64,000 bases of DNA from a candidate division WWE3 bacterium RAAC2_WWE3_1. GTDB lineage: Bacteria > Patescibacteriota > WWE3 > UBA101185 > UBA10185. Both the position numbers and the translations under genes were made by a program. The stretch is from contig CP006914.1 of the NCBI GenBank assembly GCA_000503835.1, positions 379,909 to 443,908 on the forward strand, in the 5' to 3' direction. Positions 2,893 to 9,489 of this stretch are shown here, one piece after another (position 1 is the first letter of the stretch; the number at the start of each line of letters is the position of its first letter). Under the pieces are notes generated by a model that did no database searches, was not told where the DNA came from, and saw only the letters and a list, made by a program, of their open reading frames with translations.

Positions 2893-3588
2893 ATGGAACT
2901 CAGAATAAACAAATACATGGCACTCTGCGGATTGGCATCACGCAGAAAAAGCGACGAGATACTTCTGAGCGGAGGGGTGCGGATAAACGGTCGTCCTGCA
3001 AAACCCGGGGATATCGTCAACACCGAAAAAGACACCGTTACTTACAAAGACATGCAATTGACCCCCGACAATAAGCTCGAATATTACGCTGTAAACAAGC
3101 CACTCGGTGTCATATCCTCAGCTAAAGATGAGTTCGGCAGGAAAAATGTCGTGGATATGGTCAAAACTGACCACAGACTTTTCCCTATAGGAAGATTGGA
3201 CCGAAATAGCACCGGACTTATCATACTAACTAACGACGGAGATCTTGCCCTTAAACTTACGCACCCCAGATATCATCTGCCAAAGGTTTACGAAGTTACA
3301 ACCGAAGAACCGGTTTCCGACGAACAGCTGGAAAAACTATCATCGGGAGTTTCCGTTTACCACGAAAAAACAATGCCTGCTGAAACCGAGCGTCTGGATT
3401 ATAACTTTTTCAAAATCACAATTTTTCAGGGTTTGAAGAGACAGATAAGGGAGATGTGTAAAAGTATAGGTCTTACAGTGCAGACACTTAACAGAACCGA
3501 AATCGGCCCGATAAAACTGGGAAATCTAAAAACCGGTTCATCCAGACCACTTTCCAAAGAGGAAGTAACGATGTTGAAATCCGACTAA
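2893..3588 (+). CDS. Pseudouridine synthase, RsuA/RluB family (S4 domain + PseudoU_synth_2)
   Basis: N-terminal S4-like RLNKYMALCGLASRR, catalytic-loop region FPIGRLDRNSTGLIILTNDGDL with conserved Asp (RLD). Confidence 0.85.
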   Translation: MELRINKYMALCGLASRRKSDEILLSGGVRINGRPAKPGDIVNTEKDTVTYKDMQLTPDNKLEYYAVNKPLGVISSAKDEFGRKNVVDMVKTDHRLFPIGRLDRNSTGLIILTNDGDLALKLTHPRYHLPKVYEVTTEEPVSDEQLEKLSSGVSVYHEKTMPAETERLDYNFFKITIFQGLKRQIREMCKSIGLTVQTLNRTEIGPIKLGNLKTGSSRPLSKEEVTMLKSD

Positions 3589-3642
3589 ACGTTCGGGAGT
3601 TGTTCATTAGCCAAACCGTCTTTCATTTTATATACTCATCAA

Positions 3643-4659
3643 GTGAAAAAGATATTTTTTATAACTATGGGGGCACTTTTGCTTGTTCTGGCTCCCATTT
3701 ATCTTTATATCAGGGTTTTTTCAAAAGAGAGCACGACACCCGCACAGCAACCTGAACAAAATGCAACTAAAGACAAAGAGTACATTTTTGAGGAACTTGG
3801 AATTTCTTTGGTCGTTCCGGAAGATCTGCACGTCATAAAATCTCCCGGTTTTAACGCAAGCACCGGAAAATTAGAATCTTACACTTTTTACATTCAAAAT
3901 TACGGAGACGAGAGCGGACCTGCGACAGGAGACTTTCAAATATACGGGCTATATCAACCTTCTCTGCCGGAAATTACTCCGGAAGATATTGCCGCAATAA
4001 AAGATGATGCCGAGAACTACGTCAATGTTAAGGAATTTTCGACAGGTGCGATACAGGGATACGAGGCCCGACAAAAAGGCGAACGTGCCAACTACGTTTA
4101 TTTCTTTCTTCTCAACGAGCGTATTTTGAAAATTGCCGTTTCTCAAGGAACCGAGATAAATAAGGCGGCGGCGGAAAAAATTTTAAAAACGCTCAAAGTC
4201 ATTGAAAAAATACAGACAATAGATGATACCGAAGCAACCGCGCCGGGGATGAGAAAGGAATATAATTTTTCCTACCCAAAAGGGTGGAAAGTGGCAAAAG
4301 TTAACAACGCCACCAGCGTAACCAGCCCCGATTATAAAATGTCAGGGGACGATACTGTTCTGGAGACAGGTATAGAACTGGCAGTTTATAAAAAGAGGGC
4401 CGATAGCGCTACCATCAACGAGGAATTGGCACTAAACCCGGTTACATTACAGATACCGAACAAAACTGACGCTGTTGTTGCGGGACAAAACGCAATAAGA
4501 TACGAGTACAGTTACGAAGGTGTAAATGCCATAATGACCGAATTTATTAAAGACGGCATGAGATATTCATTGAGATACAGGTTTACCGCTGAAGACAGCA
4601 AAAATATTTACATGGGTATTTACGAGGAAATGTTAAGGACTTTCGAATTTGTAAATTAG
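3643..4659 (+). CDS. Hypothetical membrane-anchored/secreted protein
   Basis: N-terminal TM/signal anchor (FFITMGALLLVLAPIYLYI), no recognisable motif. Confidence 0.5.
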   Translation: MKKIFFITMGALLLVLAPIYLYIRVFSKESTTPAQQPEQNATKDKEYIFEELGISLVVPEDLHVIKSPGFNASTGKLESYTFYIQNYGDESGPATGDFQIYGLYQPSLPEITPEDIAAIKDDAENYVNVKEFSTGAIQGYEARQKGERANYVYFFLLNERILKIAVSQGTEINKAAAEKILKTLKVIEKIQTIDDTEATAPGMRKEYNFSYPKGWKVAKVNNATSVTSPDYKMSGDDTVLETGIELAVYKKRADSATINEELALNPVTLQIPNKTDAVVAGQNAIRYEYSYEGVNAIMTEFIKDGMRYSLRYRFTAEDSKNIYMGIYEEMLRTFEFVN

Positions 4660-4763: not shown

Positions 4764-5945
4764 GTGACGATAACACAGACAGCAAGAACAGCTTTCCTGT
4801 CACTTCAAAAAAATAAACTCAGGAGCTTTCTGACCATGCTCGGTGTGATAATAGGCGTTTTTGCCGTAGCATCGCTGGTTTCGATAGTGAGAGGCTTCCA
4901 GAATTATGTAAAAAGCGAGTTTGATGCGTTAGGTTCCAATCTTATTTTCATAATGCCCGGAAAAATAGACTTTACCGGAGATCCTTCAAGGAATTTTACC
5001 GGGAACAAGCTCAAATACAACCATGTAGAAAGAATTCAGACGGATCTCGGAAACAAAATCAGCTCCATTTCGCCGTGGTACGAGCTCTCAAAAAATTTTA
5101 TTTATAAAACTAAATCATTTTACGGAGCGATTGGAGGAATAAACGATAGTGTTCTCAAGTTGTTTAACCTTAATGTGGCAAACGGGCGTTTTTTCACAAA
5201 AGCTGAGATGGACGCCAAAGCGAAAGTAGCGGTAATAGGATCAAAAGTTCTGGAGGAATTGTTCAATTCACGCAACCCCATCGGAGAAAAAATACAAATC
5301 GACGGAACATCGTATTTGATTTTAGGTGTGCTGGAAGAAAAGAGTCCTAATTACGATAATATTGTTTACATCCCATACACCACGGTTGAGTCCGAATTCA
5401 ACATTAAAAATATCGGCTCCATAGTTATAAAAGTCGGTAGCGGGGAGGATATAAACAGTGTAAAGAATGAGATCAGGCTCTCACTCTTGAAAGAACTAAA
5501 AGACGAAGAATTCTCGGTCTCAACACAGGAGGATCTTTTACAGAGAATAAACGATATTTTAAAGATAATAGAGAGCGGACTGACGGCAATTGCTGCTATC
5601 TCACTGCTTGTGGGCGGTATAGGGATTATGAACATCATGCTCGTCTCCGTTACCGAGAGAACCCGCGAAATAGGCCTTATCAAAGCATTGGGGGCGACCG
5701 GCAGGGACATAGCCCTCCAATTCCTATCCGAATCCGTATTTATAAGTTTCACCGGCGGATTAATAGGATTAGCGGCCGCGTGGATTGCCACACTTGTTGC
5801 AAAAACGTGGATACCTGCGGAGATACCTTTATGGGCAGTTGTGGTATCTTTGGGTTTTTCACTTCTTGTCGGAATCGGCTTCGGAACTTATCCTGCAATT
5901 AAGGCCGGAAAAAAGGACCCGATAGTTGCCCTTAGATATGAATAA
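4764..5945 (+). CDS. ABC transporter permease, MacB/FtsX family (MacB_PCD + FtsX domains)
   Basis: N-terminal TM, large periplasmic domain, three C-terminal TM helices with FtsX-type region (TERTREIGLIKALGATGRDI); no cognate ATPase gene adjacent. Confidence 0.8.
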   Translation: MTITQTARTAFLSLQKNKLRSFLTMLGVIIGVFAVASLVSIVRGFQNYVKSEFDALGSNLIFIMPGKIDFTGDPSRNFTGNKLKYNHVERIQTDLGNKISSISPWYELSKNFIYKTKSFYGAIGGINDSVLKLFNLNVANGRFFTKAEMDAKAKVAVIGSKVLEELFNSRNPIGEKIQIDGTSYLILGVLEEKSPNYDNIVYIPYTTVESEFNIKNIGSIVIKVGSGEDINSVKNEIRLSLLKELKDEEFSVSTQEDLLQRINDILKIIESGLTAIAAISLLVGGIGIMNIMLVSVTERTREIGLIKALGATGRDIALQFLSESVFISFTGGLIGLAAAWIATLVAKTWIPAEIPLWAVVVSLGFSLLVGIGFGTYPAIKAGKKDPIVALRYE

Positions 5946-7227
5946 AAATCTACAAAGCAAAATAATTGAAACTTTAGGCAACGGTCAGGTGGCTTTTTTC
6001 AAATCCGACACGATTTACGGATTACACGCAAAAGCGGACAACCAAAAAGCCGTAGAAAAGATCAATCAGCTAAAAGGGCGGGACATTAATAAACCCTTTA
6101 TTATACTAATCGGGAACATCGGGCAATTGGAAATATTCGGTGTTTCAATAAATAAAAATACCCGAAAATTAATTAAAAAACATTGGCCGGGGAAATTAAC
6201 ACTCGTGCTCAAAGCAAATTTAACCGAAACACTGAAATACTTAGGCCGGGGAGGCGAGACTCTCGCGTTCAGAATGCCTAAGGACAAAGATATTCAGAAC
6301 ATCATAAAGAGCACAGGACCGATAATAAGCACCTCCGCGAACCCTTCGGGAGAAGAACCCGCATCCACGGTAGAGGAAGCAAAAAAATATTTTGGGGACG
6401 GGGTAGATTTATACATTGATTCGGGAAATGTTGAAACCGGGCCTTCTACAGTAATAGATGCTACCGGAGAAGACATTAGGATTTTACGGGAAGGAGAAGT
6501 AAAGCTGTCGCCTATGCCCGCGAACAGCTATAATTCGGCTATGGGCAATAAGATTAATTACGCGGTTGCCACACTAATATTTTTAGCTATAGCTACCGGC
6601 GTTTGGCTTAACATTAAGGAACAAAAAAGCATCGACCATTCGAAATTGCCGGAAAAGGTCGAGCAAAGCAACGGGTTCCAAAGGTGGATCACAAATCTCA
6701 AGAACAAAGATATGGTAATAGAAGCTGACGAATTTACACTCAAAGAAGAGAATGAAATTTACAACACAAAATGGATGAAAGTTTACTCGATAGAAGAAGA
6801 GGGAATGAGAGAAAAATATAATGGGACAATTGAAAGTTTGCGCGGTGTAAAAAAAGTTGTTTTTTCCCCCAGCGAAAGAGAATTAATTGACTACCGCCCG
6901 GAATACAGAGACGGTTACGCACCGAACGAAGTTCATTTTTACGGATTGAAAGAGGATAAGATTATCGATGCGAGAATTTTGGACTGTTCCGCACATGCGA
7001 ATTGTTATTTCGACCGGGCATATTTTTTGGATAATGATGTTTTTGTTATTTCGGAATTTTCAAGAACGATTGATAAGAAGGATGAGGTCTCTGCTGTGTG
7101 CTCGGTGGAGGAAACGTGCGAGTATTCCGTAAAGGTTCACGTTATAGATTTAATAAACAATAAACGCCTGGTTTACGAATCCCGTCCTTTTCAGGCTGTT
7201 ATGACAGAATTGTTGCCGGAGTTGTGA
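5926..7227 (+). CDS. tsaC: L-threonylcarbamoyladenylate synthase (YrdC/TsaC domain) fused to a C-terminal TM helix + ~200-aa domain of unknown function
   Basis: N-terminal ~200 aa matches the YrdC fold (KSDTIYGL, KGR..NKPFIILI, PGKLTLVL, GPIISTSANPSG); TM helix INYAVATLIFLAIATGVWL follows, then an unknown Cys-containing domain; start overlaps upstream gene by 20 nt. Confidence 0.7.
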   Translation: MPLDMNKNLQSKIIETLGNGQVAFFKSDTIYGLHAKADNQKAVEKINQLKGRDINKPFIILIGNIGQLEIFGVSINKNTRKLIKKHWPGKLTLVLKANLTETLKYLGRGGETLAFRMPKDKDIQNIIKSTGPIISTSANPSGEEPASTVEEAKKYFGDGVDLYIDSGNVETGPSTVIDATGEDIRILREGEVKLSPMPANSYNSAMGNKINYAVATLIFLAIATGVWLNIKEQKSIDHSKLPEKVEQSNGFQRWITNLKNKDMVIEADEFTLKEENEIYNTKWMKVYSIEEEGMREKYNGTIESLRGVKKVVFSPSERELIDYRPEYRDGYAPNEVHFYGLKEDKIIDARILDCSAHANCYFDRAYFLDNDVFVISEFSRTIDKKDEVSAVCSVEETCEYSVKVHVIDLINNKRLVYESRPFQAVMTELLPEL

Positions 7228-7295: not shown

Positions 7296-7372
7296 CGGGG
7301 TGTAGCTCAGTTGGCTAGAGTGCACGGTTTGGGACCGTGAGGCCGCAGGTTCGAGTCCTGTCACCCCGACCA
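7296..7372 (+). tRNA. tRNA-Pro (anticodon UGG), CCA encoded
   Basis: Hand-folded cloverleaf: acceptor CGGGGTG/CACCCCG, anticodon stem CACGG/CCGTG, loop TTTGGGA, T-loop TTCGAGT, 3' ACCA. Confidence 0.85.
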
Positions 7373-7951: not shown

Positions 7952-8149
7952 CTAATTCTTACAGTCGGAACACTGGCACTGGCACTCGCAGTCACAGTCG
8001 TAGCAATCGCCGCCGCATTCGCAATCACAGTCTTTTTCGCACTGTTGGCTGCATTGCGTTGCGCAGTCATAATCGCATTCGCAATCCTTGCATTCGGCCT
8101 GGCTTCGGGAGCCCGCAACATGGATACCGAGAGCGCTCAGGGTAGTCAT
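7952..8149 (-). CDS. Cys-rich precursor-like peptide (65 aa; 19-aa leader + 46-aa core with 16 Cys and many Asp/Glu), putative RiPP precursor
   Basis: Sequence MTTLSALGIHVAGSRSQAE-CKDCECDYDCATQCSQQCEKDCDCECGGDCYDCDCECQCQCSDCKN; its start codon overlaps the stop of the upstream rSAM/SPASM gene (ATGA), so the two are translationally coupled. Confidence 0.6.
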   Translation of the reverse strand: MTTLSALGIHVAGSRSQAECKDCECDYDCATQCSQQCEKDCDCECGGDCYDCDCECQCQCSDCKN

Positions 8150-9489
8150 GTCTGCCTTACCTCCTTTCTTCGGATTTTTCTTCCCTCATACACGAGTATA
8201 GCGGGAAGTACGCCTTTCATCAGCTCGCACATAACTGATGGTTCTCCCAATGTGTTTGCGCTTAAAGCAAGCACGGCACATCCACCGCAGCACACATGTC
8301 GCCAAAGGCATTCGCCGCAAACCCCATCTCTACCTAAGGTTTCGACATGAGTTGCAAAAGGCAAGATGCCCCCTCTATCCAAAGCACGCCCCAGAGGCTT
8401 ATCAACGGTCATTTGGCAAAAGCAGACATTAGCTTCTGGGTCAACGGCGAAGTAGTTGCTACCCCCACCACAGATCCTTGTCCTGCTACCGTCAAACTGG
8501 ATACCGTTGAAGCTTAGTCTTGGAAGCTCGTTGTCAGGAAGTAGGCTGACTTGTTCCAAGAATGCAACCATCTTGCTAGTAACGTGGTCTACATTCATGG
8601 TCAAACCCACGCCGTGCTCGTAATCCCGGGACAGGCTTAGACTGAGTGTTAGACCTTTCCCTCTGACATACTGCATTAGCTCCCAAAGCCCGTCTACGTT
8701 CTTATCAGAAATCGTAGTTAGAATGGTTGGTTTAATCCCAGCCAATATCAAAGTTTCGATTCCTTGAAGAACGTGCTCCACACTTGGTCGGCCGTCTGCG
8801 TACTTTCGGGCATCGTTGTAGCTACCAAGCCCATCAAGCGATACCATCACGGAGAAGCCTTTCTCGTTTAGGAAGTGGGCTTTGGCCTCCGTAACCAATG
8901 TACCGTTGGTGATTATCGCCAACCGGACCTTGACACCCAAGGGCTCTAGTTTAGCCTTTGTTTGGTCTACCAAGTAAGCAATTATCTCCGTGTAAATAAG
9001 CGGTTCGCCACCAGCAAATTTCAACTCTACTTCTTTAACCTGTTGGGCCTCTACATCGTTGTGTAAAGCGGTAACGATTGCGTCGCACGCTTCCTTGGTC
9101 AGTCTGCGTTTGCCTTTATGCACATAGCAGTATTCGCACCGCAGATTACAGGCGTCCGTAACATGTATCCAGAGAGCCACGGACTTTGCACGTCTGGCCT
9201 TGGCTTTCTCCTGCTTAGGAACCTTCTTACCAAAAAGCCCCTCTTCCAGGAGAAACTGGATTATGGCGTGTAAAGACTCTTCCCAATCAGTATCATCTCT
9301 TGACTGGAGAATTTCCTGAAGGGTTAAACCGTTTGCCAGTTGTTCGTATACGTACAGAGCCGCGTCTGAAAGTACAAATGCCTTGCCGGAACCGTAAGGA
9401 CTGTAGATCACCGCCTCACCATTTTGTAGGTTTAGCTTAATGTGACCTGACATGTCCAATAACAGTCCCTGATACGTCAGGTCTGTCAT
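8146..9489 (-). CDS. Radical SAM/SPASM-domain peptide-modifying enzyme with N-terminal PqqD/RRE-like leader-binding domain
   Basis: CxxxCxxC at residues 114-121 (ACNLRCEYC); C-terminal auxiliary-cluster Cys pattern C-x16-CxC ... CGECLWRHVCCGGC (Cx2Cx5Cx3C) ... C typical of SPASM; ~100-aa N-terminal extension (SGKAFVLSDAALYVYEQLANGLTLQEILQ) resembles RRE; GGAGAG SD 7 nt upstream of ATG. Confidence 0.85.
   Translation of the reverse strand: MTDLTYQGLLLDMSGHIKLNLQNGEAVIYSPYGSGKAFVLSDAALYVYEQLANGLTLQEILQSRDDTDWEESLHAIIQFLLEEGLFGKKVPKQEKAKARRAKSVALWIHVTDACNLRCEYCYVHKGKRRLTKEACDAIVTALHNDVEAQQVKEVELKFAGGEPLIYTEIIAYLVDQTKAKLEPLGVKVRLAIITNGTLVTEAKAHFLNEKGFSVMVSLDGLGSYNDARKYADGRPSVEHVLQGIETLILAGIKPTILTTISDKNVDGLWELMQYVRGKGLTLSLSLSRDYEHGVGLTMNVDHVTSKMVAFLEQVSLLPDNELPRLSFNGIQFDGSRTRICGGGSNYFAVDPEANVCFCQMTVDKPLGRALDRGGILPFATHVETLGRDGVCGECLWRHVCCGGCAVLALSANTLGEPSVMCELMKGVLPAILVYEGRKIRRKEVRQT

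Follow-up and report, generated by a model that had tools for sequence, protein, structure and literature searches.

A probable lineage-specific fusion of tsaC with a neighboring orphan gene in a subclade of WWE3 bacteria

TsaC uses threonine, bicarbonate, and ATP to make threonylcarbamoyl-AMP (TC-AMP), which is passed to TsaD in the cytoplasm for the synthesis of N6-threonylcarbamoyladenosine (t6A). Two described enzyme forms are the closest to the protein analyzed here: the TsaC of the E. coli YrdC/TsaC type, and Sua5/TsaC2 (e.g., PDB entries 6f87 and 2eqa), in which the YrdC domain is followed by a linker and then a second domain. A further comparison is offered by the leaderless genes described in Actinobacteria and Deinococcus-Thermus, where a -10 box lies about 7 nt before the start codon. 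The locus in question was found in a stretch of 64,000 nt from the candidate division WWE3 bacterium RAAC2_WWE3_1 (contig CP006914.1, positions 379,909 to 443,908 of the forward strand), hereafter the window. An open reading frame (ORF) in the window encodes a TsaC-type domain that continues through a hydrophobic helix into a second domain, named X. The frame is best explained as a genuine, lineage-specific fusion of the neighboring genes tsaC and X in a subclade of WWE3 (Patescibacteria), in which the start signals of X have been kept and the tether is near neutral; taken as a whole, this explanation is moderately likely. What appears to be new is the clade-specific architecture of TsaC and an unannotated WWE3 family, and the known chemistry of TsaC is unchanged by these findings. 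No description of a YrdC domain joined to a transmembrane (TM) helix and an ectodomain was found, and the full-text literature searched contained nothing on t6A, or on fusions of TsaC, in bacteria of the Candidate Phyla Radiation.

The N-terminal half was classified as a TsaC-type enzyme by every available sequence test except the narrow E. coli equivalog. Its YrdC fold, as proposed for the first 200 residues or so in the initial annotation, was recovered in Pfam as PF01300 (Sua5_yciO_yrdC) at residues 12-186, with an E-value of 2.6e-46, a score of 157.8 bits against a gathering threshold of 25.1, and a coverage of profile positions 2-178 of 178. The score also exceeded the cutoff of TIGR00057, the NCBIfam equivalog for L-threonylcarbamoyladenylate synthase (165.1 bits against 123.2), but stayed below that of NF007919, the narrow equivalog for the E. 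coli-type TsaC (88.2 bits against 175). The top match among solved structures was the YrdC domain of the Pyrococcus abyssi Sua5 (6f87; E-value 1e-22), with which the KGR, S(T)SAN-SG, and PSTVID stretches align; these stretches were kept in all intact fused homologs. They contain the motifs KxR, SxN, and PST, which we take, from the structures of Sua5 and YrdC proteins, to be the substrate-binding and catalytic motifs. Like the E. coli-type TsaC, this half comprises a full-length YrdC domain with the three motifs, and its size fits that of the standalone relatives of 186-200 amino acids. Unlike that TsaC, the window protein has no stop codon at this point, and its C-terminus runs into a TM helix and a predicted extracytoplasmic domain. 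The order of a YrdC domain, a linker, and a second domain is shared with Sua5/TsaC2, but the second domain of the window protein lies behind a TM helix, has no match in Pfam or NCBIfam, and is predicted to adopt a different, beta-rich fold. An identity as Sua5 was rejected because the defining second domain is absent: the C-terminal 243 residues had no match in either database at E-values up to 1, and no Sua5-domain family was among the Pfam matches. Within the 64-kb window, no second copy of TsaC or Sua5 was found.

The ORF listing placed the frame at 5926..7227 (+), where it encodes 433 amino acids if counted from a TTG codon. Since all homologs begin with MNK and the matching ATG at 5938 sits in a conserved overlap with the stop codon of the upstream gene, the real start is almost certainly this ATG, which gives a protein of 429 amino acids. 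The upstream gene (4764..5945, +) encodes a MacB/FtsX-type permease of 393 amino acids (Pfam MacB_PCD, E-value 2.5e-43; FtsX, E-value 6.9e-21) of the ATP-binding cassette (ABC) class. The two genes overlap by 8 nt (5938-5945) in the string ATGAATAA, which is kept in every fused locus and implies that the tRNA-modification enzyme is translationally coupled to the permease gene.

From this start, the TsaC domain (residues 1-191, predicted to be cytoplasmic) occupies 5938..6510 (+), followed by a linker at 6511..6540 (+), the Met202 codon at 6541..6543 (+), a single TM helix (residues 206-227) at 6553..6618 (+), and the ectodomain of X (residues 232-429 and the stop codon) at 6631..7227 (+). The stop-free continuation through a hydrophobic helix into a Cys-containing domain of about 200 residues, described in the initial annotation, was thus borne out, including the Cys motifs quoted there (CSAHANCYFD and CSVEETCEY). 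The annotation was also right that this domain is not that of Sua5 and falls into no family that would assign it a function.

To determine where the two parts are joined, one genome per species was scanned, and 67 loci of X were identified, nearly all of them labeled WWE3 or Patescibacteria. The state of each locus was read by tblastn with the TsaC part and by walking the frame upstream of X. The same fusion, which the initial annotation had suggested looking for among relatives, was found in six other species-level genomes (L005, L007, L009, L030, L050, and L054), whose X parts are 51-91% identical to that of the window, and a continuous frame was also present in the metagenome proteins P0001, P0002, P0004-P0007, P0009, and P0012. 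One locus (L006, the same as P0003) had a fused frame with about 95 TsaC residues deleted and the rest degenerate, and another (L008, the same genome as L002, with L001 in the same arrangement) had a decayed tsaC beside an intact X. The remaining 59 loci encoded a standalone X with no tsaC within 4 kb upstream. The permease gene was directly upstream in all fused loci, with an identity of 53-86%, and in none of the standalone-X loci. Standalone X was found in varied contexts, with no conserved protein-coding partner next to it, only tRNA genes. In L026, the standalone locus closest to the fused clade, the gene just upstream of X (3539-3982) encodes 147 amino acids whose N-terminus resembles that of type IV pilins (..GFTLVELLVVISILAI..). 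For the N-terminal part, single-domain TsaC proteins of about 186-200 amino acids were the nearest relatives. The initial annotation had counted relatives that encode the two parts separately as evidence against a fusion. Such relatives do exist, given the standalone X of 59 of the 67 WWE3 species and the single-domain TsaC proteins, yet the fusion itself is still real.

The joining of the two genes appears to have required very little. The nearest standalone tsaC genes sit in differing genomic surroundings that gave no information, L075 excepted; its product is 47% identical to the TsaC half and reveals a natural C-terminus. It ends in ..ILRQGSVKISSI, followed by two stop codons, whereas the window protein continues as ..ILREGEVKLSPMPANSYNSAMGNK; TsaC is thus joined at the point where it would naturally end, and essentially only a stop codon was lost. 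The stretch that spans the junction of the fusion protein is LSPMPANSYNSAMGNK. By the same comparison, the TsaC tail ..EGEVKLS reads on without a stop into the linker, which corresponds to former intergenic DNA. This linker, about 10-12 residues long, was poorly conserved among the fused proteins except for a Tyr-Asn pair (Y-N) and the Met, and it varied in both length and sequence (e.g., L030 and L050).

In a neighbor-joining tree of the X domain, the fused, deleted, and pseudogene loci formed one clade. A single origin of the fusion is indicated, since this one clade also shares the ftsX neighbor and the ATGAATAA overlap. Two subsequent losses of the TsaC part were observed within it. In L001 (5425-6000; equivalent to L002 and L008; KatS3mg101, JGI Ga0246236_1000002), a tsaC pseudogene is flanked by ftsX and X, both of them intact: the interval is colinear with the tsaC DNA of the window, carries indels and in-frame stop codons, and has no gene called in it. 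The former linker (SGAVKLSQNLHSSYNRIM) has kept the reading frame of X. By the colinear pseudogene and the in-frame linker, this lineage descends from a fused ancestor and returned to a single gene upon decay of TsaC. In L006 (3692-4690; WWE3 RIFOXYB1_FULL_43_24 / GW2011_GWF1_42_14), a fused ORF of 332 amino acids is present, in which an in-frame deletion has removed the KxR motif, and by its sequence this represents a second, independent loss.

The ratio of nonsynonymous to synonymous substitution rates (dN/dS) among the closest pairs was about 0.13-0.17 for the TsaC part, 0.03-0.05 for X in most pairs and up to 0.09, and 0.03-0.08 for FtsX, where the synonymous divergence (dS) of the pairs used was 1.0-1.75 and thus near saturation, and distant pairs were unusable because dS was saturated. 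These ratios point to the TsaC part as a constrained coding sequence. X and FtsX are both more tightly constrained, in keeping with the loss of the TsaC part in two lineages.

The site at which X begins retains what look like its own start signals. Among the proteins of the X family, the Met at residue 202 is invariant in all fused members and corresponds in the alignment to the first residue of the standalone orthologs of about 228 amino acids. In the window, a TATAAT hexamer at 6529..6534 (+), which encodes the Y-N of the linker, is separated by the 6-nt spacer tcggct from this ATG at 6541; in L030, the pair is Y-H and the hexamer TATCAT. An alignment of the 50 nt upstream of the X start codon from 68 loci revealed TANNNT with a spacer of exactly 6 nt in 41 loci, including all fused ones, and with a spacer of 5-9 nt in 53, where base composition would predict about 2.4 loci per position. 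Transcription from sigma-70-type promoters usually starts about 7 nt past the -10 box, so a 6-nt spacer places the A of the ATG at the expected transcription start, the signature of a leaderless mRNA. The hexamer would hence be a putative leaderless promoter of X within the fused ORF.

The same signature recurs elsewhere in the window. Among ORFs of at least 100 codons, a match of at least five of six positions to TATAAT was found 6-7 nt upstream of 14 of 83 first start codons, compared with 4 of 423 later in-frame ATG or GTG codons, and 6541 is one of these four. The window starts bearing the signature were 56, 2893, 3643, 11271, 14100, 14822, 16224, 19532, 36796(-), 37857, 39542, 42792, 48010(-), and 56377(-). 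From this distribution, leaderless transcription would seem to be frequent in the genome of this WWE3 bacterium. X and many window genes resemble the leaderless genes of other bacteria in that their start codons follow a TATAAT-like hexamer at a distance of 6-7 nt, and X differs from them in that its putative signal sits inside a longer ORF. Full-text searching brought up little literature that mentions both leaderless mRNA and Patescibacteria, and one such paper does so solely with regard to YchF. The leaderless-type start signal at many window genes is worth heeding in gene calling of Patescibacteria. Since the -10 box and the ATG are preserved inside the linker, X is probably still made alone, besides the membrane-tethered TsaC-X.

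X itself appears to be an orphan that belongs to no described family, occurs throughout WWE3, and is restricted to it. The last 243 residues of the window protein matched nothing in Pfam or NCBIfam at E-values up to 1, a Pfam search with all 107 members of the X family gave scattered chance matches only (E-values of 0.01 or above), and a sequence profile search of the PDB with X gave nothing credible, the top match being TIR-APAZ with an E-value of 0.04 over 45 residues. When 1.84 billion cluster representatives were searched exhaustively with a profile, 36 clusters were returned, all of the X family, with no remote relatives among them, and Foldseek with the X model found nothing at an E-value of 0.001 or below. 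Against a large protein collection, the C-terminal 243 residues had 394 matches. The nearest of these (63-90% identity) were proteins of 412-426 amino acids that carry PF01300 and thus represent the same fusion, and the great majority were about 228 amino acids long, had no Pfam domain, and began at a Met just before the hydrophobic helix. The mean column identity among the 107 members was 62%, with 32 invariant positions that include three of the four Cys. These Cys (C350, C356, C388, and C394) form two CX5C pairs and are invariant or nearly so among the 107 homologs.

The lone hydrophobic segment, at residues 206-227 (INYAVATLIFLAIATGVWLNI), reached a 19-residue Kyte-Doolittle mean of 1.88 (threshold 1.6), and AlphaFold placed one long helix at residues 203-231. 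Standalone X proteins begin with an MKK-type N-terminus followed by the helix, the pattern of N-in signal anchors. Because of these N-termini and the need of TsaC for cytoplasmic substrates, the fusion would be a single-pass type II protein (N-in/C-out) with TsaC in the cytoplasm and X outside the membrane. A cleavable signal peptide was provisionally rejected: the window helix contains A-I-A, but the consensus of the family has no conserved AxA motif, and hydrophobicity extends over about 20 residues.

The AlphaFold model of X alone, built from a 107-sequence alignment, had a mean predicted local distance difference test score (pLDDT) of 90.9 and a predicted template modeling score (pTM) of 0.82. 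It consisted of the TM helix, a short alpha/beta part, and about eleven strands arranged as blade-like antiparallel sheets. The nearest known likeness of X is to the beta-propeller blades of the TolB, DPP4, acylaminoacyl-peptidase, and Trilobed-protease type. Neither a closed ring of at least four blades nor a sequence match to a repeat family was found, and X was not classified as a beta-propeller (PD40/TolB, DPP4, or WD40). Both two local disulfides and a four-Cys metal site were considered for the Cys pairs, and the disulfides are preferred with low confidence. With similarly low confidence, X would be an extracytoplasmic module for binding or scaffolding. Its propeller-blade-like sheets would be stapled by local disulfides, and a complete propeller may form when X oligomerizes. 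In the full-length model, built from a shallow alignment of 19 sequences, two separately folded parts were obtained (pTM 0.43), with the linker at residues 192-203 below a pLDDT of 50, and the model suggests that the TsaC and X domains are independent.

Taken together, the sequences show a single-domain tsaC, translationally coupled to the ftsX/macB-type permease gene, that lacks its own stop codon and reads through about 10 former intergenic codons into X. The consequences can be proposed as follows. On an ftsX-tsaC transcript, ribosomes that start at tsaC could not halt before the end of X, and the product would be TsaC, linker, TM helix, and X in one chain. Its TsaC part would make TC-AMP for t6A37 at the cytoplasmic face, and X would be displayed outside. 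An internal leaderless transcript from the -10 box in the linker would give X alone and may extend into the downstream tRNA-Pro gene. The tether itself is probably near neutral, as the TsaC part evolves faster than its neighbors and was lost twice, and X was never lost in the sister lineages. Because X is usually a separate gene with its own start signals and TsaC has been lost repeatedly, the fusion is probably a tolerated evolutionary accident rather than a new functional class. The locus is accordingly a young, clade-specific stop-loss fusion, and nothing in it points to a dedicated, membrane-bound kind of TsaC.

Several observations weigh against this interpretation. The persistence of the fusion across lineages at 45-51% identity could mean that it brings an advantage, and the dN/dS values come from pairs near saturation. 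The tree of X carries no support values and puts L026, with a standalone X, close to the base of the clade of fused loci. A constraint on the protein might in principle explain the conserved Y-N, and the fused sequences are related by descent. A two-hexamer scan for the sigma-70 consensus did not flag the junction, because no good -35 hexamer precedes the TATAAT. Additionally, the topology, disulfides, and oligomerization of X are all predictions, as are the fused product and the separate X product.

Some of these points bear on the alternative that only the fused polypeptide is made and that the TATAAT and ATG of the linker are inactive relics. The lack of a -35-like hexamer and of a consensus match at the junction, as well as the persistence of the fusion across a deep clade, would be expected from it. 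However, the hexamer, the exact 6-nt spacing, and the Met were kept in all nine fused or formerly fused lineages as the remaining linker diverged, and in L001/L008 an intact X begins at the retained ATG after the decay of TsaC, so that the site can still serve as a start. This alternative was judged unlikely, though a credible one.

An adaptive bifunctional protein, in which t6A synthesis is coupled to external sensing or binding or in which X needs a cytoplasmic domain, was considered improbable. Its retention down to about 45-51% identity with purifying selection on both halves is consistent with such a role, as is the position of X beside tRNA genes almost everywhere. On the other hand, X occurs without TsaC in 59 of the 67 species, and two lineages within the clade dropped TsaC and kept X. 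The linker is short, disordered, and unconserved, the AlphaFold model has no interdomain packing, and a single TM helix is a poor signal conduit without dimerization.

An equally doubtful alternative is that only X matters: the TsaC half would be a 5' extension that has lost its function and is decaying, and TC-AMP would come from another Sua5 or TsaC in the genome. The rate of evolution of this half is about three times that of X and FtsX (dN/dS of about 0.15 compared with 0.03-0.08), it was lost in L008 and L006, and its NF007919 score of 88 falls below the cutoff of 175. Yet an intact frame of 190 codons is kept in seven lineages with a dN/dS well below 1, the TIGR00057 cutoff is passed, KGR, SAN, and PST are retained, and the window has no second copy.

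A still more speculative version of a functional tether, in which the amount, stability, or activity of a membrane-anchored TsaC is tied through the helix to a WWE3-specific surface domain that possibly oligomerizes, was regarded as very improbable; if true, t6A synthesis in an episymbiotic bacterium would be linked to envelope state or to contact with its host. Finally, the initial annotation had raised the possibility that a sequencing error merged two genes. Two genes are indeed joined, and X is separate in most relatives, but an error in base calling or a dropped base at the junction can be dismissed almost entirely: at least six other species-level genomes, assembled independently, and several metagenome contigs with differing nucleotide sequences share this junction, in frame and free of stop codons, and the frame is kept despite the varying linker length and sequence of L030 and L050. 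These independent assemblies can stand in for read support at the junction.

The locus displays several evolutionary stages together: two genes apart, their fusion by stop loss, with a promoter and a start codon caught in the coding linker, and a reversion to a single gene upon decay of the upstream part. The loss of this TsaC copy in two lineages also raises the question of whether some WWE3 have a second TsaC or Sua5, or live without t6A. Public labels of the fused ORFs include "threonylcarbamoyl-AMP synthase" (P0004 and P0005) and "hypothetical protein" (P0003 and P0010), and half of each fused protein represents a separate, unannotated, WWE3-wide family that deserves its own entry.

The surroundings of X were rich in tRNA genes. 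A tRNA-Pro(UGG) gene was identified by ARAGORN and Rfam at 7296..7372 (+), 68 nt downstream of X, and a tRNA-Pro(UGG) on the same strand was found downstream of X in 56 of the 67 species loci, at a distance of at most 150 nt in 34 of them, irrespective of whether X was fused. X and the tRNA-Pro may be co-transcribed, since the + strand of the window yielded no terminator-like site between 4500 and 7600. A cluster of tRNA-Gly(UCC), tRNA-Arg(UCU), and tRNA-Leu(UAA) was often present 0.1-3 kb upstream of standalone X (L010, L011, L020, L025, L057, L060, L070, and others), which places X in a region of WWE3 genomes that is syntenic and rich in tRNA genes. A lesser novel reading, likewise improbable, would have X as a near-essential WWE3 surface protein of a new fold, translated from a leaderless mRNA on which tRNA-Pro is carried as well.

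Two further features of the neighborhood were observed. Upstream of ftsX, a protein of 338 amino acids is encoded at 3643-4659, with an N-terminal hydrophobic segment and a sub-threshold match to PsbP_2 (E-value 2.8e-4), and its relatives occur in the upstream flanks of four related loci (L001, L006, L007, and L002/L008). On the minus strand, a radical SAM protein of 447 amino acids (PF04055 and Fer4_12) is encoded at 8146-9489, followed with a 4-nt overlap by an ORF of 65 amino acids (7952-8149), in which Cys makes up about 40% of the last 45 residues (..CKDCECDYDCATQCSQQCEKDCDCECGGDCYDCDCECQCQCSDCKN). This pair looks like a radical-SAM maturase and a Cys-rich precursor peptide, similar to those of ribosomally synthesized and post-translationally modified peptides.

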